Part shown: one piece after another, positions 443 to 61,267 of the stretch
Position numbering within the stretch: the first letter of the stretch is position 1
How the letters are laid out: every line of letters begins with the position of its first letter
Origin: Patescibacteria group bacterium
GTDB lineage: Bacteria; Patescibacteriota; Patescibacteriia; 2-12-FULL-60-25
NCBI GenBank assembly: GCA_038061235.1
Contig: JBBTZS010000002.1
Location: 4,672 to 68,671, forward strand
Length of the DNA: 64,000 nt
Direction: 5' to 3'
The notes under the pieces: model-generated
Databases searched by the model: none
Told to the model about the DNA's origin: nothing
The model's input: only the letters and a program-made list of their open reading frames with translations
Position numbers and translations under genes: made by a program

Positions 443-510
443 CCAGTTGCCAGTTACCAGTGACCAGTTGCCAGTTGCCTCCCTACTCCCTACTTACTCC
501 CCCCTGCTAC
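443..510. repeat. Tandem heptanucleotide arrays (CCAGTTG/CCAGTTA/CCAGTGA x5, then CCCTACT-type units)
   Basis: 7-nt periodicity read directly, in the divergent intergenic region between 191-430(-) and 521-2332(+). Confidence 0.85.
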
Positions 511-3198: not shown

Positions 3199-3309
3199 GA
3201 CAAGGGACAAAGAGCAAAGAGCAGCTCCAGATTGGAACTGCTCTTTGCTCTTTGCTCTTTTCTAACTGCCCCCGCTCTCTGCTCTTTGTTTACTGTTCTC
3301 TGTGCTTAG
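3199..3309. repeat. Composite AAGAGCA/TGCTCTT heptamer hairpin element, copy A
   Basis: GACAAAGAGCAAAGAGCAG-13 nt loop-CTGCTCTTTGCTCTTTGCTC followed by a CTCTGCTCTTTGTTTACTGTTCTCTG tail. Near-identical organisation at 40808-40905. Confidence 0.85.
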
Positions 3310-8938: not shown

Positions 8939-9015
8939 GCCCTCGTAGCTCAACTGGATAGAGCAAGGCGTTTCTACCGCCAAGGCTGTAGGTTCAAATC
9001 CTATCGAGGGCGCCA
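8939..9015 (+). tRNA. tRNA-Arg(TCT)
   Basis: Acceptor GCCCTCG/CGAGGGC, D arm GCTC-AACTGGATA-GAGC, anticodon loop TTTCTAC, T arm GTAGG-TTCAAAT-CCTAT, G73, CCA. A27:A43 mismatch. Confidence 0.8.
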
Positions 9016-9016
9016 C

Positions 9017-9091
9017 GCTCCCGTCGTCCAAAGGTTAGGACAGCAGTCCTATGAACTGCCCATCAAGGTTCGATTCCTTGCGGGAGTACCA
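9017..9091 (+). tRNA. tRNA with non-canonical anticodon loop CCUAUGA (nominal anticodon UAU, C at position 33)
   Basis: Otherwise regular 75-nt cloverleaf: GCTCCCG/CGGGAGT acceptor, D arm GTCC-AAAGGTTA-GGAC, anticodon stem GCAGT/ACTGC, T arm CAAGG-TTCGATT-CCTTG, A73, CCA. Starts 1 nt after the preceding tRNA. Confidence 0.6.
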
Positions 9092-11021: not shown

Positions 11022-11513
11022 TTATCGGCGCACGGCCGCGGTCGTCGTGACGGTGAACGTCGCGTATGCGGATGTCGCGTTTCGCATGCCTCCGGTCGCG
11101 ACGATGCGAATGATGGCCGACGTGCTGCTCACGCGCGTGAAAGAAAGGGTTGAAAACGAAACTTCGTTCGATGTGAGCGCCACGGTCGTTCCCGTGGTTT
11201 GGGTGAGGAACACGGTTCCGTCCGTGAGCGCGATCGTCGTCGGACTGTTGGCGACCGAAGGCATCGATAAGATGAGCGTCCCGCTCGTCGAGCCGACGGT
11301 CGGTACGCTCACGTCCGAAGCCTCGGAAACGAGCGAGGCGATTCGTCCCAGAGAAAAGCGAACGTTTTCCTCCACGATCAGCGACGCGCGCAGTTTGCCG
11401 CGGATGCTGAAGGCCGTATACGCAAGGAGCGTCATGCTCGTCATGAGCATGCCGACGAACAGCGTGTATAGCAGCGTTTCGATCAGCGTGAATCCCGGGC
11501 GATGACGTGTCAT
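11022..11513 (-). CDS. Prepilin-type pseudopilin
   Basis: 163-aa ORF with RPGFTLIETLLYTLFVGML cleavage/methylation motif. Confidence 0.8.
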   Translation of the reverse strand: MTRHRPGFTLIETLLYTLFVGMLMTSMTLLAYTAFSIRGKLRASLIVEENVRFSLGRIASLVSEASDVSVPTVGSTSGTLILSMPSVANSPTTIALTDGTVFLTQTTGTTVALTSNEVSFSTLSFTRVSSTSAIIRIVATGGMRNATSAYATFTVTTTAAVRR

Positions 11514-11519
11514 AATCGA

Positions 11520-12963
11520 TTATTGCGACGTGATGATGCGCAGCGCGTCGTTTGATCGGACGGCCGTATAAAGAATATTATCTTCAAACGCGATGTCGCT
11601 CGCCATTTGCGGGAAGTTGAGTCCGGAGTAGTAGGTCAGGGCTTGCGTGTTCGTCGCATCGAAAATTTGGAATTCCAGGTTGCTGACGGTCGTGCCCAAG
11701 AACATGAGCGTGTCGGCGGCGAATACGGCCGGAATATCATTTGAGAACTCTTTGGAACCGAGGAAGAGCGGGGCGTTTGGATTGGAGATATCGTAGATGT
11801 TGATTTCCGGCGACGTTCCGGCGACGTTTTTGCGCGTGACGTAGGCTCGTCCGTCCTGATCGTTCACGTAGAGACCGATGGCCTCGGCGCTTCCCGGAAG
11901 ATTGACGGAGGCGACGATGATCGGATTGCCCGGGATTGAGATGTCTACCACGACGAATTCTCCGGTGCTGCTCGACGTGCCGAGGAACGCCGTATTCCCG
12001 AGGATCGCGATGCGATTTACGTTTCCTCCGATGTCCAGCGCGCCTTTGATTTCCGGGATCGTCTTGTTGGTTACGTCTATCAGGAAGAGTTCGGTACCGT
12101 CGTCTTCCTCCGTCCCGACAAGAACGAGCGTATTCGTCACCGCGATGCTCAACGCCTCCTCGGTGTTTCCCGTGAGCGTAAAGTTTTTGATGTTGTCGGG
12201 CGAGCTTGTCACGCTGATATTGATGATGGAAAGTTGGTTTGAGGAATCGTTAATTTGCGACGAAAGCAAAGGTTCCGGTGGTCGCGACGGCGTTTGATCC
12301 CGGACCGATATGGATGCTCGCCGCGAGCGTGGGATGTGCGCCGTCCGTCGCGTTGATGACGAAAAAGTCGTCTTTTGCGGCACTGGCCGCGGTTCCGGTC
12401 ATAAAGACGATTTTATTTTTCACCGCGACTCCCGTCGCCGAGAGGCCGGCTCCAAGGTCAATCACTCCCAGCGTTTGCGGGTTTTTCCAGTTTCCGCTTA
12501 ATCGGGGCGGAGCCGCGTCCGGAACGGCGTTTCGCCAATCCGACATGTTGGTGGAAAGCGCGATCGTGCGCGTGCGTTGCGCGGCATCAATCCACGACAC
12601 GGTGGAAATCACTTCTCGTTCATGCGTCGCGAGATCCGAGACGGTTATTTGGCGCGTGTATCCGGCATTCGTATCCGACGCGCTTTGAAAGCTCCATACG
12701 GCATTGTTCCAAAGTAATCCGTGCGTGCCCGTTGCAAGAGATGGCCAGCTCTCGTCGCGGATCGCACGCGCGGCCTCCAAGCCTTCGCGGGCAAGCGAAA
12801 GGGCTTCCAACGAGCGTTGCGTGTTGACCGAGACGAGCAGCTGGCTTGCGATGTACACGAACACGGCCGAGGCGAAGATCGCCAACAGGCCGATCACGAT
12901 GATCACTTCAAACAGGGAGCCGCCGGGACGAACGCGCGATTGCCAACGGGAAATCAGGATCAT
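11520..12963 (-). pseudogene. Pilus-associated protein: prepilin-like N-terminus plus LVIVD-like beta-propeller repeats, split by a +1 frameshift near 12250-12256
   Basis: ORF 12250-12963 (GGSLFEVIIVIGLLAI N-terminus) stops at TAA. Repeat-type sequence continues without a usable start in the next frame (ORF 11520-12383). Junction reads ..FAFVAN-(T)-NDSSNQLSIINIS. Confidence 0.65.
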
Positions 12964-17600: not shown

Positions 17601-17820
17601 TGGTGCCCCCGGTTGGATTTGAACCAACATTGCACGGCTTACCTGCCCGCCATGCCGACAAAAAAACCACGTTGTTACGTAGTTTTTTCATGGTGCCTCG
17701 AGTTGGAGTCGAACCAACATCTCACGGCTTAGAAGTCCGGTGCTCTATCCGGTTGAGCTATCGAGGCATGGCTTTGGCAGGCGGGGAAGTCCAGCGTTCT
17801 ATCCATTGAACTACAGGGGC
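17601..17820 (-). tRNA. Interrupted tRNA-Arg-like gene: 5' half 17786-17820 and 3' half 17601-17641, separated by a 144-nt insert
   Basis: 5' half: GCCCCTG-TA-GTTC-AATGGATA-GAAC-G-CTGGA-CTTC. 3' half: TAA-GCCGT-GCAAT-GTTGG-TTCAAAT-CCAAC-CGGGGGC-A-CCA. The acceptor strands pair 7/7 (one G:U). Joined loop would read CTTCTAA. Confidence 0.6.
17691..17767 (-). tRNA. tRNA-Arg(TCT), nested inside the interrupted tRNA gene
   Basis: GCCTCGA/TCGAGGC acceptor, D arm GCTC-AACCGGATA-GAGC, loop CTTCTAA, T arm GTTGG-TTCGACT-CCAAC, A73, CCA. Weak anticodon stem (CCGGA/GCCGT, 3 Watson-Crick pairs). Followed by its own hairpin/T-run (17662-17688). Confidence 0.75.
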
Positions 17821-17867: not shown

Positions 17868-18212
17868 TTATCTCTCATCCCCTTCCCCTCCCAGCTTGCC
17901 GCGATCCATTCTGGAAAACAACTTTTCAATATTTGCCGTCGCCACGTCGTCCAACGACAGGCCGAGCTCGGTCGCGAGTTGCGCCACATACCACAACACA
18001 TCGCCGAGTTCTTTTTTGACGGCGTCGCGCGTCGCGTCGTCCATAACGCCCCCCTTGTCGCGCAATACTTTCTTAATCTTTTCCGCGACCTCGCCCGCCT
18101 CTCCGGCAAGTCCGAGCGTCGGGTAGATAAAATTCGATCCGACCTCCGGATACTTGGCCGTTTTCCGCGACTCTCTTTGATATTCATTCATTTCCATATC
18201 GTTATTCGTCAT
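17868..18212 (-). CDS. mazG: MazG-like nucleotide pyrophosphohydrolase
   Basis: 114-aa ORF: LGLAGEAGEVAEKIKK..ELGDVLWYVAQLA is the MazG EXXE motif arrangement. Confidence 0.8.
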   Translation of the reverse strand: MTNNDMEMNEYQRESRKTAKYPEVGSNFIYPTLGLAGEAGEVAEKIKKVLRDKGGVMDDATRDAVKKELGDVLWYVAQLATELGLSLDDVATANIEKLFSRMDRGKLGGEGDER

Positions 18213-18215
18213 TCG

Positions 18216-19148
18216 TTATTCAATCGTCCTCCCATGGAACGCTTTATGCACGTCCTTCAATTGTTGATTCGTTACATGCGTATAAATCTGCGTCGTGGTG
18301 ATGGATGAGTGCCCGAGCATCGCCTGAACGCTTCGTAGGTCGGCCCCGTTCATGAGCAAATCCGTCGCGAACGAATGACGAAGCGTATGCGGCGAAACGT
18401 TTTTTGGAATGCCCGCCATTACCGCATAGTATTTCACCAGTCGCTCGATCGATCTCGGCGTGATCGGGCCGACCTCCTTCCCCGATGCGGAGGACGGCGC
18501 GGCGCGGTCGTGTCGCACGAACAGGTGCGGCGACTCATCCCGTCTCATCTCCACATACCGCTTCAACGCATGCTTTGCCTGGTGCGACAAAAACGCGACG
18601 CGCGTCTTATCTCCCTTCCCACGCACCGTGAACTCGTCACGCTCGAGATTGATCTGATCTCGTTTCAGTCCGGCGAGTTCCGAGACGCGCATACCGGTCG
18701 AAAAAAAGAGTTCGAGAATCGCCTTGTCGCGCGCCTTCACGATCGGCGCAAGATCCGCCTTCTCCGGCGCTTCGAGCAATCGCTGCAAGTCCGCTCCGTC
18801 GAGAAACGCGACGTCGCGCGACCCCTGCTTCGCAAGCTCGATCTTTTCCGGCGCCATCGTTTTCACATCGCGCTTGGCAAGAAATTTGAGAAACGACCGA
18901 AGTGCGATTAAGTGATAATTCTGCGTCGATTTTTTCAACGTACCCTCTCCGCGACTTTCAAGACGATTCAAATACAAACGATACCGATGCACCATGTCCG
19001 ACGTGATGTCGTCCGGTGCCGGATCTTCCGCCCATTCGATAAAACGCCGGAGATAGAACTCGTAATTACGGATCGTAAGCGAAGAGCGGCCTTTCTCCAC
19101 TTCAAGATACTCGAGAAACGTGCGGAGATGCGAGGAAAGTGTTGCCAT
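18216..19148 (-). CDS. Tyrosine recombinase XerC/XerD
   Basis: 310-aa ORF: N-terminal SAM-like domain, catalytic R..HxxR..Y signature (TLRHSFATDLL, LGHSSITTTQIYTHV). Confidence 0.88.
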   Translation of the reverse strand: MATLSSHLRTFLEYLEVEKGRSSLTIRNYEFYLRRFIEWAEDPAPDDITSDMVHRYRLYLNRLESRGEGTLKKSTQNYHLIALRSFLKFLAKRDVKTMAPEKIELAKQGSRDVAFLDGADLQRLLEAPEKADLAPIVKARDKAILELFFSTGMRVSELAGLKRDQINLERDEFTVRGKGDKTRVAFLSHQAKHALKRYVEMRRDESPHLFVRHDRAAPSSASGKEVGPITPRSIERLVKYYAVMAGIPKNVSPHTLRHSFATDLLMNGADLRSVQAMLGHSSITTTQIYTHVTNQQLKDVHKAFHGRTIE

Positions 19149-21294: not shown

Positions 21295-21371
21295 ACATTG
21301 TACATTAAACATTGAACATAGAACATTTTATCCCCCAATGTTCTATGTTCAATGTTCTATGCCTTTATGCC
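21295..21371. repeat. Inverted heptamer arrays (ACATTGT/ACATTGA/ACATAGA.. versus ..AATGTTC/TATGTTC) with a perfect 18-bp inverted repeat
   Basis: CATTGAACATAGAACATT (21310-21327), 9-nt loop, AATGTTCTATGTTCAATG (21337-21354). Lies between divergent genes. Confidence 0.85.
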
Positions 21372-21432: not shown

Positions 21433-22608
21433 ATGCCCATGGCCGTGGAACCCGTTCGCTTCGAGACGCGTCGAGAACCGCGTCGCGTCGCGCTCGTCCA
21501 CGACTATCTCGTGCAGGATGGCGGCAGCGAACGCGTCCTCCTCGCGCTGCACGAATTGTATCCGCGCGCGCCGATTTTTACGCTCTTCCACAATCCGGCG
21601 CGCACGCATATCGGCTTCAAACATGCCGACATCCGTCCGTCGTATCTGAACAATCTTCCCTTCGCAAAAAAACGCTACCAGTGGTATCTGCCCTTCATGC
21701 CGGACGCGGTGGAACGGTTCGATCTCTCCAACTTCGACCTCGTCCTCTCCTCTTCCTCCACCTTCGCCAAGGGTGTCATCGCCGCGCCGGAAGGTTTGCA
21801 CGTTTGCTACTGCCACACACCGACGCGTTTTCTCTGGCAAGAACGCGCGGGATACGTAAACGAATTGCCGCAACCGCGTTTCGTAAAACGATTCATCCCG
21901 CCGCTCCTGCATCTCATGCGCCAATGGGACGCGATCGCCGCGCGCCGTCCGGACGTGATGCTCACCAACAGCCAAACGTCGCGTCTACGCATCCGCCGCT
22001 ATTACCAACGCGACGCGGAAGTTCTCGCGCCGCCCGTGGACATCGATCGCATCCCCTTTTCAACGAATCCGGGCTCTTATTGGCTCACCGGCGGGCGTCT
22101 CGTGGCATACAAACGCTTCGATCTTGTCGTGCAGGCGTTCGCAAAACTCAACGTCCCGCTCAAAATCTTCGGCGAAGGCCCGGAGCGTGACAAGCTCCGC
22201 AAGATGGCCGGCCCGAAAACGGAATTTCTCGGACACGTCACGGACGAGGCAAAGATCCAGCTCTTCCGCGACGCCATCGCTTTCCTGCATCCGCAAATCG
22301 AGGACTTCGGCATCACCGCGGTCGAGGCCATGGCCGCCGGTCGTCCCATCATCGCCTTCGGACAAGGCGGCGCGGCCGAGACGGTGTTGAACGGCGTCAC
22401 CGGCACGTTTTTTGAAGTGCAATGTTGGGAAGACGTCGGCAACGCCGTATTGCGATTCGACCCGGCGCGCTTTGATCCGCGCCAAATCCGCAAACACGCC
22501 GAAACCTTCGGCAAGCCACGCTTTTTGGAACAAATGAAACAACGTCTCGACCGCGCATGGTCCAGCCACACATCTGACATCTCACATCTGACATCTCACA
22601 TCGTATGA
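21433..22608 (+). CDS. Glycosyltransferase family 4 (GT-B, group 1)
   Basis: 391-aa ORF with a C-terminal GT1 domain (FLHPQIEDFGITAVEAMAAGRPIIA). Stop overlaps the next start (ATGA). Confidence 0.85.
   Translation: MPMAVEPVRFETRREPRRVALVHDYLVQDGGSERVLLALHELYPRAPIFTLFHNPARTHIGFKHADIRPSYLNNLPFAKKRYQWYLPFMPDAVERFDLSNFDLVLSSSSTFAKGVIAAPEGLHVCYCHTPTRFLWQERAGYVNELPQPRFVKRFIPPLLHLMRQWDAIAARRPDVMLTNSQTSRLRIRRYYQRDAEVLAPPVDIDRIPFSTNPGSYWLTGGRLVAYKRFDLVVQAFAKLNVPLKIFGEGPERDKLRKMAGPKTEFLGHVTDEAKIQLFRDAIAFLHPQIEDFGITAVEAMAAGRPIIAFGQGGAAETVLNGVTGTFFEVQCWEDVGNAVLRFDPARFDPRQIRKHAETFGKPRFLEQMKQRLDRAWSSHTSDISHLTSHIV
22570..22603. repeat. Tandem heptanucleotide array ACATCTG/ACATCTC x5
   Basis: Forms the last 11 codons (HTSDISHLTSHIV) of the glycosyltransferase gene. 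Confidence 0.85.
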
Positions 22609-23711
22609 GAGTTCTGATGGACGGCCGTCCGATGCTGCGCCCATGGATGGGCGGCGTCCCAAGACTCGCGTCGAGTTTAGCGACATCGATCAAGGCGGCA
22701 CTCGGTGACGACCAACTGATCATCGCGACGACGGGCCTGCGCCGCGCGACAGATTCCGCCGTTTTAAGTTTCAAGTTTCAAGTTTCAAGACCCATCCCCA
22801 ACAAACTCATCGCCTTTCTCACCTTCACCGGCCTTTCTTCATTCGATCGTTTGTTTCGAGATCAAAATGCGGACGTGCTCCTCCTGCCGAATCTCGAATT
22901 CGTCGGTCGCCCGCGCATGCCGTACGCGCTTCTCGTCCACGATCTTTCGTTTCTGGTCGAACCGCGCTGGTTTGACCGTAAATCCCGTATCTGGCACGCG
23001 CTCGTGAAACCACGATCGTTGATCAGGAATGCGACGCATCTCTTCACAGTTTCCGAAACAACGAAACGCGATCTCATACGTCTACTCGATATTGATCCGT
23101 CGCGGATTACCGTGATTCCGATGGGACTCGATCCGCTTCCCGCGCTTCCCGACAACGATCGCCTGTCGCGGGCGCATGACCATGCGCCCCTACCGCAAAA
23201 CGGGCGGTTCATCTTGTGTCTCGGCGGATCTAATACGAGAAAAAACGCGTCATGCGTTTTGGCCGCGCATGCCATGCTCGTAAAAAATCCGAAATTTCAA
23301 GATGTGGATTTGGTTATTTGCGGTGGCCTCTCCCCTCAATCCCCTCCTCCCGGAAGAGGGGCAAGGGGTGGTGCGACGCACCTCGACCGTCCTTCCGACA
23401 CCGAACTTTTTTCCCTCATGCGTGACGCCTCAATATTTTGTTATCCGTCTTGGTACGAAGGCTTTGGGATACCACTCCATGAAGCCGCGAGATTCGGAAC
23501 GCCGTGTATCGCTTCGACCTCGAGCTCACTTCCGGAAACTGCACCCGAAGGAACGACGTTTGCCTCGCCCGCTAAACCCCATCATTGGGTCGAAGCGATA
23601 TGTCAGGTCTTGGACAATCCGGAAAAACATCGAACCAAAACCGTACTCGGAGACTGGAGTGAGGCGGGGCGCATAATCACGAATAAGCTGCGTGAAATAG
23701 CAAAGGCCTGA
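22605..23711 (+). CDS. Glycosyltransferase (GT-B, group 1)
   Basis: 368-aa ORF with GT1-type C-terminal domain (FCYPSWYEGFGIPLHEAARFGTPCIAS). Contains two repeat-derived in-frame segments. Confidence 0.8.
   Translation: MRVLMDGRPMLRPWMGGVPRLASSLATSIKAALGDDQLIIATTGLRRATDSAVLSFKFQVSRPIPNKLIAFLTFTGLSSFDRLFRDQNADVLLLPNLEFVGRPRMPYALLVHDLSFLVEPRWFDRKSRIWHALVKPRSLIRNATHLFTVSETTKRDLIRLLDIDPSRITVIPMGLDPLPALPDNDRLSRAHDHAPLPQNGRFILCLGGSNTRKNASCVLAAHAMLVKNPKFQDVDLVICGGLSPQSPPPGRGARGGATHLDRPSDTELFSLMRDASIFCYPSWYEGFGIPLHEAARFGTPCIASTSSSLPETAPEGTTFASPAKPHHWVEAICQVLDNPEKHRTKTVLGDWSEAGRIITNKLREIAKA
22761..22789. repeat. Tandem heptanucleotide array GTTTCAA x4
   Basis: Inside the CDS, translated as VLSFKFQVSR. 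Confidence 0.85.
23327..23385. repeat. G-run/C-run hairpin element inside the glycosyltransferase CDS
   Basis: CTCCCCTCAATCCCCTCCTCCCGGAAGAGGGGCAAGGGGTGG, translated as GLSPQSPPPGRGARGG. Related in style to 27686-27760. Confidence 0.65.
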
Positions 23712-24936: not shown

Positions 24937-25563
24937 ATGTCGACCGACGCCCCTTTGAAAACCGTCGTCATCGCGCTGCACATGATGGATCAGGATCTCA
25001 TACCGCTAATCATGAGGCTTGGGTACGACCCCGTCACCATGCCCACGCGCGACGCCTCGTGGGGATTCATCGCCAATTCGGATGAAGAGGTTCGCGTCGT
25101 CTTCGGACGTGCCGGACTCAAGCGCGTCTACGCTCCGCTGCTGATCCAGCAACTTACCGCGCACGGATTCAAACAGCAGGGATGCATCCTGGCCCGTAAA
25201 CCGGATACGTACACCAAAAAGGAAGCGCGTATCGCAAAATGCGAAGGCCTCCTGAACGTCCGTGAGGGACGCCCTAAGTTCGGACCGGCAAAGCAGTATC
25301 TCTGGAAACAATGTCTGGAGGTCAGGTTTAGACCCGGCAACGCAGCGCCGGTGCGCGGCGATCGACTTTTGCTTCGTTCAATGTTTGAACACATTTGCTG
25401 GAAACGCGGTCGCGTATACGAGATCACCGAATCAGACGGTCGGCGATACGCGCTCGTCGAGCTGGTCATGCCGTTCCGTCGCCGCAGGATCATCTGGCCC
25501 ACCAACCTCATCTTTGTCGGCAACAGATTTCAGGCGAGACAGATCTCACATCTGCAATTCTAA
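24937..25563 (+). CDS. Hypothetical protein (208 aa)
   Basis: GGAGG 7 nt before the ATG. Terminator AAACCCGATTCGGGTTT + T-run right after the stop. No family recognised. Confidence 0.6.
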   Translation: MSTDAPLKTVVIALHMMDQDLIPLIMRLGYDPVTMPTRDASWGFIANSDEEVRVVFGRAGLKRVYAPLLIQQLTAHGFKQQGCILARKPDTYTKKEARIAKCEGLLNVREGRPKFGPAKQYLWKQCLEVRFRPGNAAPVRGDRLLLRSMFEHICWKRGRVYEITESDGRRYALVELVMPFRRRRIIWPTNLIFVGNRFQARQISHLQF

Positions 25564-25590
25564 ACCCGATTCGGGTTTTTTTATTTTCAG

Positions 25591-25646
25591 CCTACCCCCC
25601 ACATCCTACATCCTACTTTCTACTCACTTCCCCCCTACCCCTCTAA
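25591..25646. repeat. Tandem heptanucleotide array (CCTACAT/CCTACTT/TCTACTC-type units)
   Basis: 7-nt periodicity between convergent genes. Overlaps the last codons of 25635-26309. Confidence 0.75.
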
Positions 25647-33587: not shown

Positions 33588-35270
33588 ATGCCCTCCCCAA
33601 CGCCTCAAACTGTCCCCGACTTCGTTGCCCGTATTCGCACGACGTTTGGAATTGACGAGATTGAGAATCTACCGGAGGACGTGACGACCCTTCGCTACGT
33701 CCTATACGCCCGCAAGAGCACCGATAACTCGGCCAAGCAGGAACGATCCATCGGCGACCAAATCCACGAATGTAAGACATTGGCAGAGCGTGCAGGGCTT
33801 CACGTCGTGGCCGTTCTCCACGAAGAACACTCGGCCAAGCTCTCCGGCAAGAGGGACGTGTTTCATGCCATGCTGGCAAGCCTGTCCAGCGGCGAATATG
33901 ACGCCATCCTGACATGGGCTCCTGACCGTCTTGCCCGCAACATGAAAGACGCGGGGGAGGTGCTCGACCTACTCGATAAAAACGACATCAAGGACATCAA
34001 GTTCGCCAATGGGTACTACTTCCAAAATGACGGCGCGGGCAAGATGATGCTCGGCATCGCCTTCGTGCAGGCTAAACAGTTCATAGACACCCACTCCCAG
34101 AACATCAAACGCGGCATCAGTCGCATCACGGCCGAGGGCAAGTGCTACGACCGTCCCAAACACGGCTACTACAAAGACAAGGACAAGTACCTCCGGCCTG
34201 ACGGGGAGAACTGGAACCTCATCAAAAAGGCCTTCGAGATGCGCCTGTCACGCGAACCGAAGTACGCTTTGCGGGAAATCGGGACATGGTTACAGGGGCA
34301 GGGCTACCCGCTCAAAACCAAGCACCCAGAACGTCACTCAATCGTCGTTGACGATAAGTTCTTGTCTGACCTATTCCGTGATCCTTTCTATGCCGGAGCC
34401 CTCATCTTCGGCAAGCGGATCGTAGACCTGACAAACAAGTACAACTTCCAACCTATCATCACGCCTGACGAGTTCGACATGCTCGCCAAAGAAGATGGCA
34501 TCAATAAGAAGTTCACGTTGTCCGAGGTCATCAAGCCCAAGGGCTCGGTCAAAGCTGACCTCATGCGTGGGATGGTCATTTGTGGCGGTTGCAATCGTCC
34601 CCGTTCCGCTGGCATCACCCCAAAGAAAACCAAAACGGGTACGACAAACTATTTTCTATACCGTTGCGACACGGTGGGGTGCAAATACAAAGGCAAATCC
34701 ATCCGCGCAAAGGAGGTGCTGGCCGCCGCCTACGCCTTCCTCGACAGCCACCCGATGAACTTTGAGAAGGGCTACGCGGCGTACAAGCGCGATATGGAGC
34801 ATCAAATCGGCGTGCGCGACGCGGAACTCCTATCAAAGCTCAAATCCCTTCATAAACAACACGAGGCGGCCAAGGAACGGGTGGACGAGGCCAAGGCATC
34901 GCTCAAACAATATGCGGACGACGCGGTGCTCGTAAAAGAGTTCAAGAAAGACTTGACGCAACAACTCGCAAAACAGCACGAACTCGAAAACGAAATACGC
35001 AAACTACAGAAAAAACGAGAGGACGGAAAAGAGGCGATCCAAAGCTACGAACAGTTCATCGAACTTTTCGGAAATCTGGCTCAACACATCAAAAAAATAA
35101 CCAACATGGACGACTTGGATTACATCATGAAAAAAGTCTTCATGAACTTTGTTATCGAGGGCAAGAAAGTCGCTCAAATAACACAAAACTCCCTGTTTAG
35201 GGAGTTGTGCGGTACACCGGAATCGGTGATGGTAGCCCCAAGGGGAGTCGAACCCCTCTTAACGGCTTGA
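33588..35270 (+). CDS. Large serine recombinase
   Basis: Resolvase catalytic domain (YARKSTD..SIGDQ, DRLARN), recombinase domain, a Cys cluster (CGGCN..C..C) and a C-terminal coiled coil. The last 41 nt overlap tRNA-Glu on the other strand. Confidence 0.88.
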   Translation: MPSPTPQTVPDFVARIRTTFGIDEIENLPEDVTTLRYVLYARKSTDNSAKQERSIGDQIHECKTLAERAGLHVVAVLHEEHSAKLSGKRDVFHAMLASLSSGEYDAILTWAPDRLARNMKDAGEVLDLLDKNDIKDIKFANGYYFQNDGAGKMMLGIAFVQAKQFIDTHSQNIKRGISRITAEGKCYDRPKHGYYKDKDKYLRPDGENWNLIKKAFEMRLSREPKYALREIGTWLQGQGYPLKTKHPERHSIVVDDKFLSDLFRDPFYAGALIFGKRIVDLTNKYNFQPIITPDEFDMLAKEDGINKKFTLSEVIKPKGSVKADLMRGMVICGGCNRPRSAGITPKKTKTGTTNYFLYRCDTVGCKYKGKSIRAKEVLAAAYAFLDSHPMNFEKGYAAYKRDMEHQIGVRDAELLSKLKSLHKQHEAAKERVDEAKASLKQYADDAVLVKEFKKDLTQQLAKQHELENEIRKLQKKREDGKEAIQSYEQFIELFGNLAQHIKKITNMDDLDYIMKKVFMNFVIEGKKVAQITQNSLFRELCGTPESVMVAPRGVEPLLTA

Positions 35271-35304
35271 AAAGCCGCTGTCCTAACCGATAGACGATGG
35301 GGCC
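35230..35304 (-). tRNA. tRNA-Glu(TTC)
   Basis: GGCCCCA/TGGGGCT acceptor (G1:U72), D arm GTCT-ATCGGTTA-GGAC, loop TTTTCAA, T arm AGGGG-TTCGACT-CCCCT, A73, CCA. Confidence 0.85.
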
Positions 35305-38930: not shown

Positions 38931-39670
38931 GACCGTTTGGATTGCGCCTTCCTCCACTCCTCAATCTTTTTATGATTCCCCGAGAGAAGTACGTCGGGCA
39001 CATTCCAAACTTTTAACTTTTGCCTTTTGCCTTTTGACTTACCAAGAACATAATTTTCCGGTCTCGTATACTGCGGATATTCGAGTACGCCTGCGTCCGT
39101 ATGCGACTCGGCCGCAAGCGACTCCGCTTTGCCAAGGACGCCGGGAACCAGGCGCGCGACGGCATCCGTCATGACGAGTGCGGGGAGTTCGCCGCCCGTC
39201 AGAACGTACGGCCCGATGGACAGCTCCTCGTCGGCGAGATGTTTGGCGATGCGCTCGTCCATGCCCTCGTATCGCCCGCACAAAAAGACGAGGCGGTCGT
39301 ATTTCGAAAGTCGCTTTGCCTCCTGCTGTGTGAACGGTTTCCCTTTTGCGGATGTAACGATGACGCGCGCCTTTTTGGCAGCGGCCGTTTTCTTTCCGTC
39401 TTTCGTCCGGAGTTTGAGCGAGACGAGTGCTTCGTGAAACGGCGCGACTTTCATCACCATCCCGGGACCACCGCCAAACGGCTTGTCGTCCACAGTTTTA
39501 TGCGCGTCATGCGTCCAGCGGCGCAAGTCATGCACCTGGATTTGTAGGGGTACGGCGCGCCGTGCTCCTACCGAACGTTGCGCACGCCCCAAAATCGAAC
39601 CGCGTAAATACGGCTCCACCATTTCAGGAAAAATAGTGACGATATCGACGCGTAATGGTTTGCGTTTCAT
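38927..39670 (-). CDS. trmD: tRNA (guanine37-N1)-methyltransferase TrmD
   Basis: 247-aa ORF: IVTIFPEM, VDDKPFGGGPGMVM, CGRYEG.DER, LSIGPYVLTGGE motifs. Carries an in-frame palindrome insertion. Confidence 0.92.
   Translation of the reverse strand: MKRKPLRVDIVTIFPEMVEPYLRGSILGRAQRSVGARRAVPLQIQVHDLRRWTHDAHKTVDDKPFGGGPGMVMKVAPFHEALVSLKLRTKDGKKTAAAKKARVIVTSAKGKPFTQQEAKRLSKYDRLVFLCGRYEGMDERIAKHLADEELSIGPYVLTGGELPALVMTDAVARLVPGVLGKAESLAAESHTDAGVLEYPQYTRPENYVLGKSKGKRQKLKVWNVPDVLLSGNHKKIEEWRKAQSKRS
39544..39571. repeat. REP-like palindrome, copy 5, inside trmD
   Basis: GTAGGGGTACGGCGCGCCGTGCTCCTAC, translated on the minus strand as SVGARRAVPLQ. Confidence 0.8.
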
Positions 39671-40294: not shown

Positions 40295-40378
40295 TCCGCC
40301 CATGCTCTACGAGCCTTCCTCTGGCGGGGACGGGTTCACGCCAGGCACATCTGGCACCTCGCCTGCCGGCGGGCAGGT

Positions 40379-40406
40379 CTGACATCTAACATCTGACATC
40401 ATTCAT
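40379..40406. repeat. Tandem heptanucleotide array CTGACAT/CTAACAT x4
   Basis: Immediately upstream of the rpsP ATG. Same unit family as 22570-22603. Confidence 0.8.
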
Positions 40407-40807: not shown

Positions 40808-40905
40808 GAAAAGAGCAGAGAGCAAAGAGCAGTTCCAATCCGGAGCTGCTCTTTGCTCTCTGCTCTCTGTTCTTTGCTCTTTGTTTACTGCTCTCTGTTC
40901 TCTAC
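40808..40905. repeat. Composite AAGAGCA/TGCTCTT heptamer hairpin element, copy B
   Basis: AAAGAGCAGAGAGCAAAGAGCAG-13 nt loop-CTGCTCTTTGCTCTCTGCTC plus a ..CTTTGTTTACTGCTCTCTG tail. The loop is the reverse complement of the copy A loop. Confidence 0.85.
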
Positions 40906-43112
40906 TCCCTTCCCGGATTCAGTTCTTCGAAGTTCACGGAAAGGAGTTGAGAGACGCCGTCGTCGCCCATCGTCACGCCGTACAGCACGTTTGCCTGCGT
41001 CATGGTGGCGCGATTGTGCGTCACGACGACGAATTGCGTTTTGTCGGCCAGCGTCCCGATGATCTCCGCGAACTTGCGCGAGTTTACCTCGTCGAGTGCG
41101 GCATCCACTTCGTCGAGCACGACAAAGGGCGACGGGTTGGTCGCCATGATCGCGCAAATGAGCGCGATAGACGTCAGCGCTCGCTCCCCGCCGGACAAAA
41201 GCGCAATCGCTTTTGCGCGTTTTCCGGGCGGCGTGGCCATGATGTCGATCCCCGCGACCTCGCCCTCCTTTGGCGCGCGGAGCACGTTACCCTCTTCATC
41301 CACTTCCGGTTCCGGTTGTACTTCGACAAGCGATGCGTCGCCTCCGCCGAACAATTTTTTGAAATACACGCCGAACTCCTTGTCGAGCTTGCGAAACGCG
41401 GTCGCGCTTCGGCCGCGAATCGTGTCGTCCAGCTCCTCGACCACGGTCTCAAGGCCGAGAATTCCCTGTCGCAAGTCCTCGACCTGTTTTGAAAGAAACT
41501 CGAATCGCTCCTTGGTCTCCGCATGCTCCTTTACGGTTTCCGAATCAATCCCGCCGATCCACTCAAGCTGCGAGCGCAGTTTCTGCAACCGCGCCTGCGT
41601 CTCCGGCCCCGTCGGAGTTCTAAGTTCTAAGTTCTGAGTTCTAAGTTCTTCCTCTATCTTCGGCGCATGAAGACGGATATCGGACAGCAGCGCGTCGCGT
41701 CGCGTTTCGAGACGCGCGAGCTCGACCGCCGCTTCCCCGGCTCTACGCTCTACGCTCTGCGCTTCCGCCCTTTTCTGCATGAGCTTGTGTTGCGTTTCGA
41801 AGATGTGCGAGCGCTTGTCCTCTTCACCCTTGTTCCACGCTTCGAGTGCGGCTTCCGCTTCCTTCGCGCGTCGGGCCAATGCCTCGCTTTCTTTGGCGAT
41901 GGACTGCAACTCTTTTTCGATGGCGGGATCGGTTTCCGCTTCCTTCACGGCCTCCGGCGCCGGACGCTGGAGAGAAGTGAGTAGTGAGTAGTGAGTCGTG
42001 AGTAGGTTCTTGAAAAGCGCGCGAAGTTTCGTGATCGGCGGGTTTTCCGTCTTCAACATTGTATCGATCTCTTCGTGTTGATGATGGATTCCTTCAATGC
42101 CCGAAATGATTTTTGAAAGCGGCAACGGCGACCACGGCTTCTCGGCACGAACGGCGGCCACGGCCTTCTTGGTTTCGAGCTTCAATTCTCGTTCGCGCAA
42201 GGCCGCGCGTTCCGTCGCCGCCGCGTCGACCGCGACGCGCAGTTCCTTGAACCCCTCGCCACGCGGCGTCGCCTTCTCGAGTTCCGCGAGTTCCGCTTCA
42301 AGCGTCTTCGCTTCCGCTTCGAGCGCCGCTTCGGCCATCCGCGCCTCGTTACGCCGCGTTTGCGCGGATGCGAGTCCCGAGGAAACCGTGCCCCATTCAT
42401 GCCCGTAATGCGCGCGTTCCAGCGAACGGAGTTCCACTTCGATCATCTCGCGCTCCGCTAAACGCTTCACGTGTCGCTCAAGCGAATTCAATCGGGGTCC
42501 GATCTCCGACAGGATCTGATCGGTTTGAATCAGATTCTTGCGCGACTCGTCGATCTTGTTCAAGGCGCTTTGCCGCTTTAGCTGGAACGATCGCAGTCCG
42601 AACGCTTCGTCGAAAAATTCCTTGCGTTCCGACGGCGACGCGACCAGCACCGCATCGACCATCCCTTGTCCGATCACCGAATACGTCCGTTGGCCGATGC
42701 CGCATTGCGCGAGCAGAAGCGCGACATCGGTGAGACGCGCCGCCTGCTTATTCACCTCGTATTCCGACTGACCGTCACGATAGAGTCGGCGCGTAATCGC
42801 GATCTCCCCCATCTCGACGCCCTCGATCTTGCCGTCGTTTTCAAGAATCATCGTGACTTCCGCAAAACCCGAGCGCGTTCGTTTTTCGGAACCGGAAAAA
42901 ATCACGTCTTCCGATTTCTTCCCACGAAGCAGCTTCAAACTCTGCTCACCCATCACCCACCGGATGGCATCGGCGATATTCGACTTTCCCGAGCCGTTGG
43001 GCCCGACGATGCCCGTCACCCCACGACGCCCGGACGGATCGAGCTTGAACTCGACCACCGTCTTTTGCGCAAAGGTCTTAAAACCTTGAATCTCCAAACG
43101 CTTTAAATACAT
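40902..43112 (-). CDS. smc: Short SMC-like chromosome segregation ATPase (736 aa)
   Basis: N-terminal Walker A GPNGSGKSN, long coiled coil, C-terminal signature LSGGERALT and Walker B FVVLDEVDAALD. About 400 aa shorter than typical SMC, with no recognisable hinge. Confidence 0.75.
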   Translation of the reverse strand: MYLKRLEIQGFKTFAQKTVVEFKLDPSGRRGVTGIVGPNGSGKSNIADAIRWVMGEQSLKLLRGKKSEDVIFSGSEKRTRSGFAEVTMILENDGKIEGVEMGEIAITRRLYRDGQSEYEVNKQAARLTDVALLLAQCGIGQRTYSVIGQGMVDAVLVASPSERKEFFDEAFGLRSFQLKRQSALNKIDESRKNLIQTDQILSEIGPRLNSLERHVKRLAEREMIEVELRSLERAHYGHEWGTVSSGLASAQTRRNEARMAEAALEAEAKTLEAELAELEKATPRGEGFKELRVAVDAAATERAALRERELKLETKKAVAAVRAEKPWSPLPLSKIISGIEGIHHQHEEIDTMLKTENPPITKLRALFKNLLTTHYSLLTSLQRPAPEAVKEAETDPAIEKELQSIAKESEALARRAKEAEAALEAWNKGEEDKRSHIFETQHKLMQKRAEAQSVERRAGEAAVELARLETRRDALLSDIRLHAPKIEEELRTQNLELRTPTGPETQARLQKLRSQLEWIGGIDSETVKEHAETKERFEFLSKQVEDLRQGILGLETVVEELDDTIRGRSATAFRKLDKEFGVYFKKLFGGGDASLVEVQPEPEVDEEGNVLRAPKEGEVAGIDIMATPPGKRAKAIALLSGGERALTSIALICAIMATNPSPFVVLDEVDAALDEVNSRKFAEIIGTLADKTQFVVVTHNRATMTQANVLYGVTMGDDGVSQLLSVNFEELNPGRE
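41617..41651. repeat. Tandem heptanucleotide array GTTCTAA x4-5 inside the smc-like gene
   Basis: Translated as EELRTQNLELRT. Confidence 0.85.
41741..41768. repeat. Tandem heptanucleotide array CTCTACG/CTCTGCG inside the smc-like gene
   Basis: 7-nt periodicity in the coiled-coil coding region (..AEAQSVERRAG..). Confidence 0.75.
41977..42004. repeat. Tandem heptanucleotide array GTGAGTA x4 inside the smc-like gene
   Basis: Translated as LLTTHYSLLTS. Confidence 0.85.
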
Positions 43113-43116
43113 ACGG

Positions 43117-43144
43117 GTTTCAGGTGTCAGGTTACAGGTTTCAG
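43117..43144. repeat. Tandem heptanucleotide array GTTTCAG/GTGTCAG/GTTACAG (left arm)
   Basis: Starts 5 nt upstream of the smc-like gene's start. Inverted relative to 43210-43237. Confidence 0.85.
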
Positions 43145-43209
43145 CCTTGAAAAAGAAGTCCTCGTGTCCAGCCTCTGCAAGGTTGCCTTTTTTAGCGAAA
43201 TCCGCGATG

Positions 43210-43237
43210 CTGACACCTGACAGCTGAAATCTGACAC
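43210..43237. repeat. Tandem heptanucleotide array CTGACAC/CTGACAG/CTGAAAT (right arm)
   Basis: Ends 10 nt upstream of the rbfA start. Reverse-complement family of the left arm. Confidence 0.85.
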
Positions 43238-43246
43238 CGAACCACT

Positions 43247-43594
43247 ATGTCATCGCATCGCCTGGAAGCCGGTTTTGAGCATGTGCGGGAAGCTTTCGCC
43301 GAATCCATCCGTGAAGTCGTGGAGTTCCCGCGTGACATGCTCGTCACCGTTCTCGAAGCCAAACTGACCGCCAATACCGCTCACGTACGGATCACTCTAT
43401 CCGTGTTTCCCGAAACCCTGAAAGACGAGGCCGTCCGTATTTTGCGCGGAGCCGAGCAGGATATAAAAGAGGAATTGATGACACGCATCCGCTTGCGACG
43501 CATGCCTCGTATCCACTACACGTTTGACGATACGGAGGCCGAGGCGGCCGTGATCGAACGCGCGATCAACGAATTGAAGGAAAAGGGTGAATGA
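43247..43594 (+). CDS. rbfA: Ribosome-binding factor A
   Basis: 115-aa ORF; VTVLEAKLT.....A.V..SV and RLRRMPRIHYTFDDT are RbfA-typical. Confidence 0.85.
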   Translation: MSSHRLEAGFEHVREAFAESIREVVEFPRDMLVTVLEAKLTANTAHVRITLSVFPETLKDEAVRILRGAEQDIKEELMTRIRLRRMPRIHYTFDDTEAEAAVIERAINELKEKGE

Positions 43595-43649
43595 TAAAAA
43601 CCCACCTACGCCGGAAGCTTTGGTGGGCGGGCCCGACGCGAGGTCGGGA

Positions 43650-44375: not shown

Positions 44376-44485
44376 GAGAACCTCCGGTGAAAAGGGTCCG
44401 TTGTTTGTGTATCCGAGATGACGGGAGTTGGCAATGATCTGCACTTGACGGCTCGCTAAAAAATAGCTAATGTAAACCGTTCCCT

Positions 44486-45454: not shown

Positions 45455-45507
45455 CACTCTCACAATTTGACTGCTAACTTGGTTCTGCTATCCTGAGCCC
45501 GTACCCA

Positions 45508-45537
45508 AGCTACCAGCTACCAGCCACCCCCTCCCCC
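45508..45537. repeat. Tandem heptanucleotide array AGCTACC x2 + AGCCACC + CCCTCCC
   Basis: Directly upstream of the clpP ATG. Reverse complement of the unit found inside tsaE. Confidence 0.75.
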
Positions 45538-45538
45538 T

Positions 45539-46150: not shown

Positions 46151-46196
46151 CCACATAACACGTAGCAAAGGACCGGGTAATCTCGGTTTTTTGAAT

Positions 46197-46245
46197 GCTA
46201 CATGCTACGTGCTATTTGTTACATGCTACGTGCTACCTGTACACC
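46197..46245. repeat. Tandem heptanucleotide array GCTACAT/GCTACGT/GCTATTT x7
   Basis: Between convergent clpP and the SpoIID gene. Overlaps the last codons of the latter. Confidence 0.85.

Positions 46246-58983: not shown

Positions 58984-59079
<96 letters not shown>

Positions 59080-61229: not shown

Positions 61230-61267
<38 letters not shown>

Follow-up and report, generated by a model that had tools for sequence, protein, structure and literature searches.

Heptanucleotide tandem arrays at gene junctions and within proteins of a Candidatus Uhrbacteria genome

Tandem arrays of 7-nt units occur at about 22 loci in a 64-kb window (the whole stretch of 64,000 nucleotides analysed here) from a Candidatus Uhrbacteria (CPR) genome of Hainich groundwater. 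These STRR-like arrays probably arose and changed through slippage by whole units and through template switching, persisted where they are tolerated, and were partly co-opted. Heptamer arrays are known from cyanobacteria and a few other bacteria; here, their change is visible between near-identical strains. Reports of an excess of heptanucleotide repeats go back to 1990 (STRR), and a generalisation followed in 2007. The present case places the phenomenon in a small genome, roughly 1 Mb as judged from related complete assemblies, of which about 170 kb was covered for array loci. Homologues of SMC and FtsZ and the related loci belong to Candidatus Uhrbacteria and Patescibacteria, not to heterocystous cyanobacteria. 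The reach of the arrays is also wider than in earlier reports, extending to terminators that appear to be replaced, to leaders added to genes that are leaderless in relatives, and to translation within essential proteins, repeatedly at the same linker.

Number, period and position of the arrays

A preliminary description, made from the sequence alone, had claimed at least 20 sites of tandem 7-nt units, and all of the examples it listed are present in the sequence. TRF returned about 30 period-7 rows, at coordinates matching that description (for instance 443-479, CCAGTTG x5.3, and 479-494, CTCCCTA x2.3), and higher-order repeats of 14, 21 and 28 nt within arrays. The period-7 scan that the description had proposed was carried out with an independent detector, which at a score of at least 12 found 11 period-7 arrays in the window and none in 20 dinucleotide shuffles. 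At the same threshold, the other periods from 4 to 13, and period 15, gave 0-1 arrays each in the window, and period 14, a multiple of 7, gave three. At a score of at least 9, there were 22 period-7 arrays in the window compared with none in 50 kb of E. coli K-12.

Among the periods, 7 alone is enriched, both in the window and further stretches of its genome and in 80 relatives. The earlier claim of strict 7-nt periodicity stands insofar as this period dominates in the clade, but it is not exclusive, as the arrays of the relatives comprise 36 of period 7 and 9 of period 8. At the stage of exact two-copy repeats, the 7-nt bias is clear in the window and in relatives is no stronger than that of period 8, which speaks, without being decisive, against an origin by slippage. 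The distribution among the 80 relatives is patchy. Since array density differs among the hundreds of relatives with sequenced genomes, a gene behind the arrays, be it for repair, a polymerase or something else, could be traced by phylogenetic profiling.

It is almost inconceivable that the arrays are artefacts of assembly or sequencing. Some short public contigs (L107, L108) stop at array hairpins, suggesting that assemblers struggle there, but the arrays are 15-100 nt long and thus below the length of one sequencing read, independent assemblies carry them identically, orthologous sites in other species keep them, and intragenic arrays are stop-free and in frame. The preliminary description, which had named assembly artefacts as a way for its proposal to fail, was therefore right to treat the arrays as real. 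For annotation, the consequences are that ORF calls are lengthened by stop-free arrays and that contigs break at the hairpins.

Arrays are found at about a third of gene junctions. The clustering at gene boundaries described earlier was confirmed, with 15 of 22 loci intergenic in a window that is 12.9% intergenic (binomial p = 3e-9), while the remaining 7 of 22, which the preliminary description had missed, lie inside coding sequence and are read in frame (three in SMC, one each in TrmD and TsaE, and two in glycosyltransferases). Arrays abutting start codons and inverted pairs forming long hairpins had likewise been reported, and both were recovered: eight loci end a few nucleotides from a start codon, and there are seven inverted pairs, which fold into long stems (z -3 to -9.6) that at the best loci are perfect over 21-25 bp, with unit variants mirrored exactly between the two arms. 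The loci are as follows, with the strand given where one applies.

443-494: CCAGTTG x5.3 then CTCCCTA x2.3, in the divergent spacer between a minus-strand ORF start (430) and a P-type ATPase ATG (521)
3199-3309: AAGAGCA/TGCTCTT hairpin, copy A, between convergent gene ends (stops 3197 and 3306)
18199-18221, minus strand: TCGTTAT x3.3 (sense ATAACGA), across the junction of an Xer-like stop (18216) and the MazG ATG (18197)
21295-21361: inverted pair ACATTGA / ATGTTCT with a perfect 21-bp stem, 8 nt upstream of a sugar-transferase ATG (21287, minus strand)
22569-22602, plus strand: ACATCTG/ACATCTC, a 14-nt higher-order repeat x2.4, encoding the C-terminal tail of the GT4 gene 21433-22608 and abutting the next GT4 ATG (22605)
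22761-22789, plus strand: GTTTCAA x4.1, within a GT4 glycosyltransferase CDS, read as VLSFKFQVS
25591-25646: CCTACAT-type, pyrimidine-rich, just past a classical terminator (25562-25578) and overlapping the stop of gene 25635-26309
26329-26397: inverted 14-nt repeats CCTTGATCCCTGAA / TCTGGGATCACGGA, an insertion that separates the TsaE stop from the following gene's conserved -10 box
26620-26652, minus strand: AGCTGGT x4.7 (sense AAGCTAC/CAGCTAC), within the TsaE CDS
39008-39036, minus strand: ACTTTTG x4.6, within the TrmD CDS, in the loop KSKGKRQKLKV, where relatives have 8-11 nt
40378-40406, plus strand: CTGACAT x3.3, leader directly upstream of the rpsP (S16) ATG at 40409
40808-40905: AAGAGCA hairpin, copy B, perfect 25-bp stem, between the rpsP and SMC stops
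41616-41649, minus strand: AGTTCTA x4.9 (sense AGAACTT), SMC linker, aa ~490-511
41740-41763, minus strand: GCTCTAC x3.4, in SMC, encoding the conserved motif AEAQSVERRAG
41972-42005, minus strand: GAGTAGT x4.9 (sense CTACTCA), in SMC, replacing exactly 12 codons (LLTTHYSLLTSL)
43116-43144, minus strand: GGTTTCA-type x4.1 (sense CTGAAAC/CTGTAAC/CTGACAC), abutting the SMC ATG (43112)
43210-43238, plus strand: CTGACAC-type x4.1, abutting the RbfA ATG (43247), inverted partner of 43116-43144
45508-45537, plus strand: AGCTACC x3 with a C-rich tail, between the conserved clpP promoter (TTGACT-16-TATCCT) and the ATG at 45539
46195-46236: ATGCTAC/GTGCTAC x6, just past the clpP terminator hairpin, overlapping the stop of a SpoIID-like gene
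48718-48773, plus strand: CCTGCTT x2 then CATGTCC x6 (21-nt higher-order repeat), ending 4 nt before the ATG of a polysaccharide-biosynthesis gene (48778)
58510-58602: AAGAGCA hairpin, copy C, in the 23S-5S spacer
62781-62968: arms AAGAGCA (62786-62805) and TGCTCTT (62939-62956), copy D, bracketing ~130 nt upstream of the 23S leader

Arrays in leaders, at terminator positions and in coding sequences

The AAGAGCA hairpins have stems of 17-25 bp followed by CTCTTTT tails and, as predicted stem-loops with a T-rich tract at gene 3' ends, resemble intrinsic (Rho-independent) terminators; the hairpin at 40816-40862 passes a terminator scan. Array hairpins stand where relatives carry classical terminators, as at the rpsP/SMC junction of copy B, where the counterpart is a classical intrinsic terminator. 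Judged from sequence, inverted pairs probably replace intrinsic terminators between packed, individually promoted and nearly leaderless genes. At the 5' ends of genes, the -10 boxes lie 6-8 nt from the ATG and the genome is without Shine-Dalgarno motifs, SD-like motifs being found upstream of 1 of 10 genes with arrays and 4 of 25 without. Insertion of arrays has separated conserved promoters from the ATG, or a stop codon from the -10 box that follows it, and the arrays adjacent to starts have about one G per unit on the sense strand. Where the sense strand of a single array is poor in G, the array may act as a leader that has no Shine-Dalgarno site. A terminator would not be expected between the 23S and 5S genes, yet an AAGAGCA hairpin is found there, an observation that speaks against a terminator role.

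Within coding sequence, the SMC linker at aa 490-511 is a hot-spot, with independent arrays in at least eight lineages. In the window's array at this linker (41616-41649), one variant unit, AGAACTC, removes an in-frame TAG. The SMC array at 41740-41763 is 7-periodic at the DNA level only in the window, L081 and L082, and that at 41972-42005 is common to the window and P0002/L081, within a recombined segment. The array at SMC site 1 has a single difference in 30 nt, against an identity of only 63-76% in its flanks, and a near-identical array in diverged flanks points to concerted evolution. The TsaE array is orthologous and 33 nt long in the window and in L081, with an A-to-C variant that has spread over three adjacent units and no change in length. 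Replacement with little or no net length change was seen in SMC (36 nt for 36 nt) and in TsaE (33 nt for 27 nt), and neither the length nor the reading frame of intragenic arrays changes from species to species. An SMC heptad register kept by three units (equal to one 7-residue heptad) was considered and dropped, as the peptides are without a/d hydrophobic spacing.

The same permissive sites have been reused with different units, namely the SMC linker, the rpsP leader, the TrmD loop, the SMC-RbfA spacer and the PrgI-TraC junction, the last in five states. In the rpsP leader, relatives have 4-13 nt or another unit (CTACTCA). The array at the SMC start (43116-43144) is also present in L004 and L081 and missing from L082 and L084, and that at the RbfA start (43210-43238) is found in the window and L004 only. 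L082 and L083 are one sequence, one of them with a masked stretch, and do not form a strain pair. In every available case, 'empty' orthologous sites resemble the units: CCTTTT in TrmD, AAGCTAGCC in clpP, GAACTT in SMC, and GGACCTTGATC and GGATGAG at the PrgI-TraC junction. Given a genome that is 87% coding, arrays survive only between genes, in leaders, at 3' ends and in unconstrained protein linkers. Their distribution shows that retention is limited to these few permissive places, and that linker arrays must stay stop-free and in frame.

Shared units and change within one population

Most loci in the window have private units. The same unit nevertheless recurs for AAGAGCA (four loci), ACATCTG (two) and AGCTGGT (two), which gives 8 identical-unit pairs against 0.39 expected, so that the earlier statement of a different unit at almost every site applies to most loci and not to these. 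With the AAGAGCA family collapsed, kinship among the window units at up to one mismatch was not significant (8 pairs vs 4.8 expected, p ~0.12). Across unrelated loci and different genomes there are 58 identical-unit pairs vs ~5 expected, and units with an AGCT core make up 17 of 98 arrays compared with ~2% expected; an identical 33-nt AAGCTAC array occurs in TsaE of L081 and SMC of L021. Contrary to the preliminary description, units are therefore not exclusively locus-specific. The idea that units are copies of the -35 box (TTGACA-like CTGACA, TTGAAA) was dropped, as by inspection, with no formal test, ~3 of ~17 distinct window units fit vs ~1 expected.

The AAGAGCA hairpins are copies of one dispersed element, of which the window has four and the rest of the ~170 kb of genome covered has at least 15 more that are distinct. 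The copies have common arms, a common 3' tail and related loops, and lie in either orientation; their arm lengths vary in 7-nt steps, and some enclose unrelated, locus-specific cores. No fixed ends and no target-site duplications were seen among them, and no exact AAGAGCA tandem was found in the loci of the 80 relatives. Near-identical copies stand on both sides of ftsZ, and a rearrangement breakpoint lies at one copy. Furthermore, a 31-nt array arm is common to two unrelated loci of the same genome, the right arm of 26329-26397 having been copied. Together, the dispersed copies and the shared arm indicate that sequence spread between loci also occurs.

Additional Hainich loci, which do not overlap the window, were considered as a second organism, and this was rejected because an exact protein match identifies them as the window's own population. 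The comparison of strains for copy-number variation that the preliminary description had suggested gave a positive result: in the array upstream of ftsZ, two alleles differ by exactly one CTGCTCT unit (7 nt), while the flanks and ftsZ itself are identical. This indel sits in an intergenic hairpin and not in coding sequence. At the PrgI-TraC junction, two unrelated array hairpins occupy the same place in genomes that are otherwise >99.9% identical. With a one-unit indel and a whole-cassette swap in one population, rates and mechanisms become measurable from existing reads.

Origin of the arrays and comparison with known systems

An origin by local duplication, slippage and template switching is partly shown by these data, and in part we infer it. 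A local sequence of 6-9 nt would become tandemly duplicated, after which strand slippage in steps of 7 nt or multiples would let the array grow, shrink and homogenise. Template switching between the arms of a nascent hairpin may then produce the inverted array copy and keep the stems perfect, and an occasional microhomology-primed switch to a distant array could bring favoured units or whole arms to new junctions. The preliminary description had favoured a generative mechanism over the spread of a single element; the one-unit indel, the higher-order repeats, the homogenised variant and the local seeds agree with slippage, but the AAGAGCA family and the 31-nt arm testify to spread between loci as well. 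Pure local slippage does not predict the excess of identical-unit pairs, the dispersed AAGAGCA family, or the complete exchange of one hairpin for an unrelated one at the PrgI-TraC junction. The length-neutral replacements in SMC and TsaE are also beyond slippage alone, unless compensating deletions follow under selection. In the literature, the excess of heptamer SSRs has been put down to polymerase slippage (Mrazek 2007, as cited in PMC4692102).

It is unlikely that the arrays or inverted-pair hairpins are REP/REPIN- or MITE-like elements moved by a trans-acting transposase, with single arrays as their decayed halves. Such elements would fit the dispersal of the AAGAGCA family in both orientations with its common arms, tail and loops, the copies around ftsZ with the breakpoint at one of them, the shared 31-nt arm and the alternative cassettes at one junction in near-identical genomes. 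However, most loci have unique units, the arms step by 7 nt around cores that are in some copies unrelated, target-site duplications and fixed ends were not seen in the copies covered, intragenic arrays and local seeds misfit transposition, and a Pfam scan of ~50 window ORFs found no reverse transcriptase, transposase, RAYT or primase-polymerase. The nucleic-acid enzymes that are present among these ORFs (a RecQ helicase, an Xer-type integrase, a large serine recombinase, a LAGLIDADG endonuclease and an SNase-domain protein) have no link to the arrays. The same scan bears on a dedicated repeat-writing activity, whether a specialised polymerase, a short-template reverse transcriptase or a repair pathway, that would install and swap the arrays. 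Identical units at unrelated loci, replacement without net length change, the whole-cassette replacement between >99.9% identical genomes and the patchy array density over the clade would all suit a writer of this kind; nevertheless, we regard it as quite improbable, since no candidate gene was found among the ~50 ORFs, the many different units argue against one fixed template, and slippage explains local seeds and one-unit indels more simply. Templated addition, which the preliminary description had offered as one of two mechanisms, is unsupported as the work of a dedicated enzyme, with neither a reverse transcriptase nor a transposase among the ~50 window ORFs scanned. A more general proposal, that active and possibly enzyme-assisted, microhomology-primed template switching writes, copies and swaps heptamer hairpins at junctions and linkers in Uhrbacteria-type CPR, is rather unlikely. 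If it were true, each lineage would keep rebuilding its terminators, leaders and stretches of essential proteins from its own set of 7-nt units, forming a self-renewing 'punctuation' layer of a streamlined, Shine-Dalgarno-free and largely leaderless genome.

Selection for a function in cis has also been weighed against slippage and template switching. Phased sites for a single-strand binder (a cold-shock protein, ribosomal protein S1 or a CsrA-like protein) on leaders without Shine-Dalgarno sequences would account for the eight arrays that end near start codons, for the roughly one G per unit on sense strands and for the recurrence of favoured units over loci and genomes, and they have a parallel in the binding of one CspB per heptamer (PMC4679880). 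Yet units vary so widely between loci that no single sequence-specific binder fits, one gene may have an array in one species, another unit in the next and none in a third, and arrays also occur after stops, within coding sequence and as double-stranded stems, all of which makes this reading improbable. Arrays lie in or next to two glycosyltransferase genes, one sugar-transferase gene and one polysaccharide-export gene, all of kinds that phase variation typically targets. Taken with the 7-nt indel polymorphism in the population, this might suggest contingency loci, in which copy-number change of a unit with a length not divisible by 3 switches genes on and off. That is very improbable, given that arrays are found in the essential SMC, TrmD and TsaE and in the leaders of rpsP, clpP and rbfA, that intragenic arrays keep length and frame between species, and that the sole observed indel is in an intergenic hairpin. 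The arrays do resemble the contingency loci of Haemophilus, Neisseria and Campylobacter in having a slippage-prone unit and in standing, in some cases, beside surface-polysaccharide genes, but here they are pervasive in housekeeping genes and stable in length within them. Similarly, the likeness to REP/REPIN, Correia and similar elements concerns the AAGAGCA family only, whose hairpins are dispersed, palindromic and intergenic and are found at terminator positions and at a rearrangement breakpoint; unlike those elements, they have arms built of 7-nt units that change in 7-nt steps, and no fixed ends or target duplication were seen in them.

Slippage and template switching can also be set beside the known heptamer systems. 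One published proposal is said to attribute the period of 7 to a property of the replicative polymerase's DNA contact. An excess of heptamers is not limited to heterocystous cyanobacteria, to which the preliminary description had referred such repeats; it is on record for numerous bacteria, and Xanthomonas, Beggiatoaceae and Bacteroidetes have been studied in detail (PMC4692102, PMC4679880). The preliminary description knew of no such report for a genome of this type, and none of the papers covered by the literature search connects CPR taxa with heptamer repeats. In marine Beggiatoaceae, some cyanobacteria and Bacteroidetes, TAACTGA repeats are known, with 2-6 units just upstream of starts without Shine-Dalgarno sequences; they also precede essential genes, differ between strains in 7-nt steps and have a patchy phylogeny (PMC4679880). 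The window arrays match them in all of these respects, but there one unit dominates, whereas here there are many, and hairpin pairs, intragenic arrays and arrays at terminator positions are prominent; no tandem TAACTGA was found in the window or any locus. The GGGAATC / GGGGAYT repeats of Xanthomonas and Nostoc (PMC4692102) likewise form intergenic arrays, some as inverted pairs between convergent genes, with wide length and sequence variation at the same site between close relatives. Those repeats are G-rich and quadruplex-forming, whereas the units here are typically G-poor on the sense strand, and the window has no GGGAATC or GGGGATT tandem repeats and no run of three or more G in its unit consensus sequences. 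With the cyanobacterial STRR, the arrays have in common tandem 7-nt units, a mostly intergenic position, inverted arrangements and perhaps the presence of several unit families per genome; they differ in their CPR host, in their many private units and in having about a third of arrays in coding sequence. STRR1 (CCCCAGT), STRR2 (TTGGTCA) and STRR3 (CAACAGT) do not occur in tandem in the window. Among the relatives, L043 alone has ACTGGGG x2.7, the reverse complement of STRR1.

Period-7 arrays in the window and among relatives

One of the tandem 7-nt arrays is flanked by a minus-strand ORF, which starts at 430, and a P-type ATPase gene, whose ATG is at 521:
443-510: CCAGTTG CCAGTTA CCAGTGA CCAGTTG CCAGTTG CC, then CTCCCTA CTCCCTA CT and a C/T-rich tail

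For the 64-kb window Tandem Repeats Finder returned some 30 rows of period 7, and every array named in the preliminary description is either one of these rows or visible in the sequence. A second count used a purpose-built simple period detector at two score thresholds. The arrays are real, and their number far exceeds chance, including the chance level set by shuffled sequence of the window; the earlier observation is confirmed, while its interpretation is partly supported.

Arrays counted by the period detector
Window, 64 kb, score at least 12: 11 period-7 arrays; 0-1 for other periods from 4 to 13 and for 15; 3 for period 14
20 dinucleotide shuffles of the window, score at least 12: 0 period-7 arrays
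Window, 64 kb, score at least 9: 22 period-7 arrays; 0-3 for other periods from 4 to 12
E. coli K-12, 50 kb, score at least 9: 0 period-7 arrays; 0-1 for other periods from 4 to 12

The SMC-like protein (736 aa; 40902-43112, minus strand) has hundreds of homologues, the named ones mostly from Candidatus Uhrbacteria/Patescibacteria, and the 80 orthologous loci taken from species-representative genomes carry the same names. Across these 80 relatives (1.36 Mb) period 7 is again dominant, with 36 arrays against 9 of period 8 and 7 of period 12. The distribution is patchy, and the period-8 arrays occur in a few lineages. A perfect 102-nt array (CTAGCTT x14.6) in a complete Uhrbacteria chromosome (L040, 8641-8742) indicates that arrays can grow far longer than those of the window.

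Heptamers had been noted as a feature of heterocystous cyanobacteria. This holds for the STRR of that group, but an excess of heptamer SSRs has been reported for many bacteria (PMC4692102, PMC4679880). The cases described in detail are the cyanobacterial STRR, GGGAATC in Xanthomonas with GGGGAYT in Nostoc, and TAACTGA in Beggiatoaceae, cyanobacteria and Bacteroidetes (PMC4692102, PMC4679880). Of these, the TAACTGA repeats and the STRR come closest in behaviour to the window arrays, although none of their units occurs in these arrays and the phylum is different. The literature searched contained no paper linking CPR taxa to heptamer repeats, which is not proof that none exists. To the known systems the window adds a large number of private units, inverted pairs that are common and have perfect stems, arrays translated as part of essential genes, and a cassette-like turnover among members of one population.

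Arrays between genes and within coding sequence

The reported clustering at gene boundaries is borne out: the intergenic share of the window is only 12.9%, yet 15 of the 22 curated loci fall there (p = 3e-9). Eight loci end a few nucleotides from a start codon (MazG, sugar transferase, GT4, rpsP, SMC, RbfA, ClpP and a polysaccharide-export gene), and the arrays at 25591 and 46195 lie downstream of stop codons or classical terminators. Inverted pairs able to form long hairpins were found at seven loci, with best stems of 21-25 perfect base pairs (z from -3 to -9.6), and unit variants of one arm are exactly mirrored in the other.

Shine-Dalgarno motifs are nearly absent, being present before 4 of 25 genes without arrays and 1 of 10 genes with them. 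A -10-like box (TATACT, TAGATT, TATCAT and similar) stands 6-8 nt before the ATG of many genes, for example at 4193, 21433, 28065, 39670 and 44486, which suggests that the mRNAs are largely leaderless. Given these two features, a single array before a gene would give its mRNA a leader that lacks a Shine-Dalgarno site; the sense strand of such arrays has roughly one G in each unit. At rpsP and clpP, 20-40 nt of leader array have been inserted downstream of a conserved promoter (TTGACT-16-TATCCT) and ahead of the ATG, at a site where these genes are near-leaderless in relatives. The hairpin at 26329-26397 was inserted after the TsaE stop codon and before the following gene's conserved -10 box, and the position of the AAGAGCA hairpin at 40808-40905 is occupied by classical terminators (AAAAAC-stem-GTTTTTT type) in three relatives (L004, L081, L082). 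A role as leaders is plausible for single arrays, and one as terminators for inverted pairs, given where these pairs lie, their stem with a T-rich tail, and the fact that they take the place of classical terminators. The AAGAGCA copy between the 23S and 5S genes speaks against termination as the sole role.

The remaining seven loci, which escaped the preliminary description, are in coding sequence: three in SMC, one each in TrmD, TsaE and a GT4 glycosyltransferase, and one that forms the C-terminal tail of a second GT4. Each is read in the only frame that is open. The AGAACTT x5 array of SMC has a single variant unit, AGAACTC, at exactly the point where an unvaried unit would introduce a TAG in frame. 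Independent arrays with differing units occupy one SMC linker (aa 490-511) in no fewer than eight lineages (the window, L003, L004, L018, L021, L048 with two arrays, P0008 and P0044), and a second (aa 614-631) holds arrays in three more.

Turnover, movement and origin of the arrays

At orthologous positions, relatives have arrays in common with the window at SMC site 1 (CTACTCA, 41972-42005), in TsaE and at the SMC-proximal array. Elsewhere the unit differs at the same site, as in the rpsP leader (CTGACAT in the window, CTACTCA in L081 and L082) and the TrmD loop (CAAAAGG in the window, CGCAAGC in L081). The TsaE array is 33 nt long both in the window and in L081, with a window A-to-C variant that has spread through three adjacent units, and higher-order repeats of 14, 21 and 28 nt occur within arrays. 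SMC itself is a mosaic: nt 990-1170 (window 41940-42120) are 37-50% identical to the homologue P0001 and 63-76% to P0002, while outside this segment identity to P0001 is about 90%. This mosaic points to homologous exchange between Uhrbacteria species. The site-1 array lies inside the exchanged segment, yet differs from that of P0002 at 1 of 30 positions, so that it has stayed uniform while its flanks diverged, which indicates concerted evolution.

Copy number varies within the population. Two alleles of the hairpin upstream of ftsZ, exactly one CTGCTCT unit and two substitutions apart, have identical flanks and FtsZ. At the junction between the PrgI-like and TraC-like genes, five or more states are found in genomes that share at least 93% identity in the TraC-like protein, and the two Hainich alleles sit in contigs otherwise one SNP apart in 7.2 kb.

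States of the PrgI-TraC junction
2 nt ("empty"): L117-L119, from the same assembly as L082, the closest relative of the window
9 nt: L123, L124
GAACCTT / GGGATCAAGGTTCA hairpin: L095, L111, L112
Unrelated GTAGGAT / CTACNNC hairpin: L101, L109, L110, L113-L116
AT-rich hairpin, 122 nt: L122

Near this junction, a Hainich genome (L109, 2212-2541) carries a "23S rRNA intervening-sequence protein" gene (PF05635) between the TraC-like and VirB4-like genes, which is missing from the closely related genome carrying L117.

Many units are private, as the proposed locus specificity requires, but identical canonical units form 58 pairs against about 5 expected for random heptamers. Units with an AGCT core (AGCTRGW) make up 17 of 98 arrays, in eight genomes, against about 2% expected. 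The four AAGAGCA loci of the window (3199, 40808, 58510 and 62781) have arms and a 3' tail in common, and a metagenome scan found this hairpin at 19 loci, of which 15 are distinct; almost all lie elsewhere in the same genome. The hairpin loops are related and follow the pattern YTCC-N5-7-GGAR, in either orientation; near-identical copies flank ftsZ, and one strain is rearranged at a copy. Additionally, one PrgI-TraC allele has as its right arm a 31-nt copy (one mismatch) of the corresponding arm of window hairpin 26329-26397, and an identical 33-nt AAGCTAC array occurs in L081 TsaE (11965-11997) and at the L021 SMC hot-spot (11492-11524). Both AAGCTAC arrays are read in the same frame, as KLQATSYKLQA.

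A generative mechanism rather than spread had been proposed. Arrays do arise in place, with signs of the generating process in the one-unit indel and in units that resemble local sequence wherever an "empty" orthologous site is available, but the recurring units, AAGAGCA copies, 31-nt arm and AAGCTAC array indicate that sequence also moves between loci. The account that fits best is one in which local sequence would seed an array, unit-wise slippage would remodel it, template switching between hairpin arms would give inverted copies, and microhomology-primed template switching would occasionally copy it to other junctions. Selection would then act as a filter, leaving arrays only in intergenic positions and in protein linkers that are free of constraint. 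The period of seven is not accounted for by the present data; the one published idea is a polymerase-contact effect (PMC4692102). The arrays make the old question of heptamer-array origin testable in small genomes for which rich population data exist.

Population and other features of the window

An exact-protein look-up of ClpP led to Hainich groundwater contigs (well H41) with identical gene order, and one such contig (L126) is 99.89% identical to window 42539-49150, with all five arrays of that stretch identical. The window thus derives from a Hainich Uhrbacteria population, independently assembled several times. All seven differences from L126 fall within 82 nt of clpP (45781-45862) and are protein-silent, with none elsewhere in 6.6 kb; this cluster looks like a short recombination tract.

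RNA genes comprise a 23S rRNA with a LAGLIDADG-bearing insertion, a 5S rRNA, five tRNAs and a LOOT RNA. The 23S match (58711-62501, minus strand) is 3,791 nt long, compared with 2,925 nt for the model, and an ORF in the insertion (59716-60252) encodes a 178-aa LAGLIDADG homing endonuclease. The insertion looks like an rRNA intron, and rRNA introns are common in CPR bacteria. No 16S gene stands beside the 23S gene within the window.

A region at about 30100-35300, missing from the syntenic relatives L001, L002 and L004, is probably an integrated element beside a tRNA. It contains:
32108-33241: SNase-domain gene
33149-33271: LOOT RNA
33573-35270: large serine recombinase
35230-35304: tRNA-Glu

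Inside the SNase-domain ORF lies a G-rich 21-nt tandem repeat (GGGGCGTGGGGGTGCTGGGGA x3.2, 32260-32328), unrelated to the 7-nt arrays. The tRNA-Ile at 9017-9091 has the anticodon UAU, which is unusual in bacteria, where AUA is mostly read by a modified CAU anticodon. Two inverted tRNA-Arg(UCU) genes (8939-9015, plus strand; 17691-17767, minus strand) enclose a pilus/secretion block of pilin, T2SSF and T2SSE genes, and a Xer-type integrase (18216-19148) lies immediately outside it.
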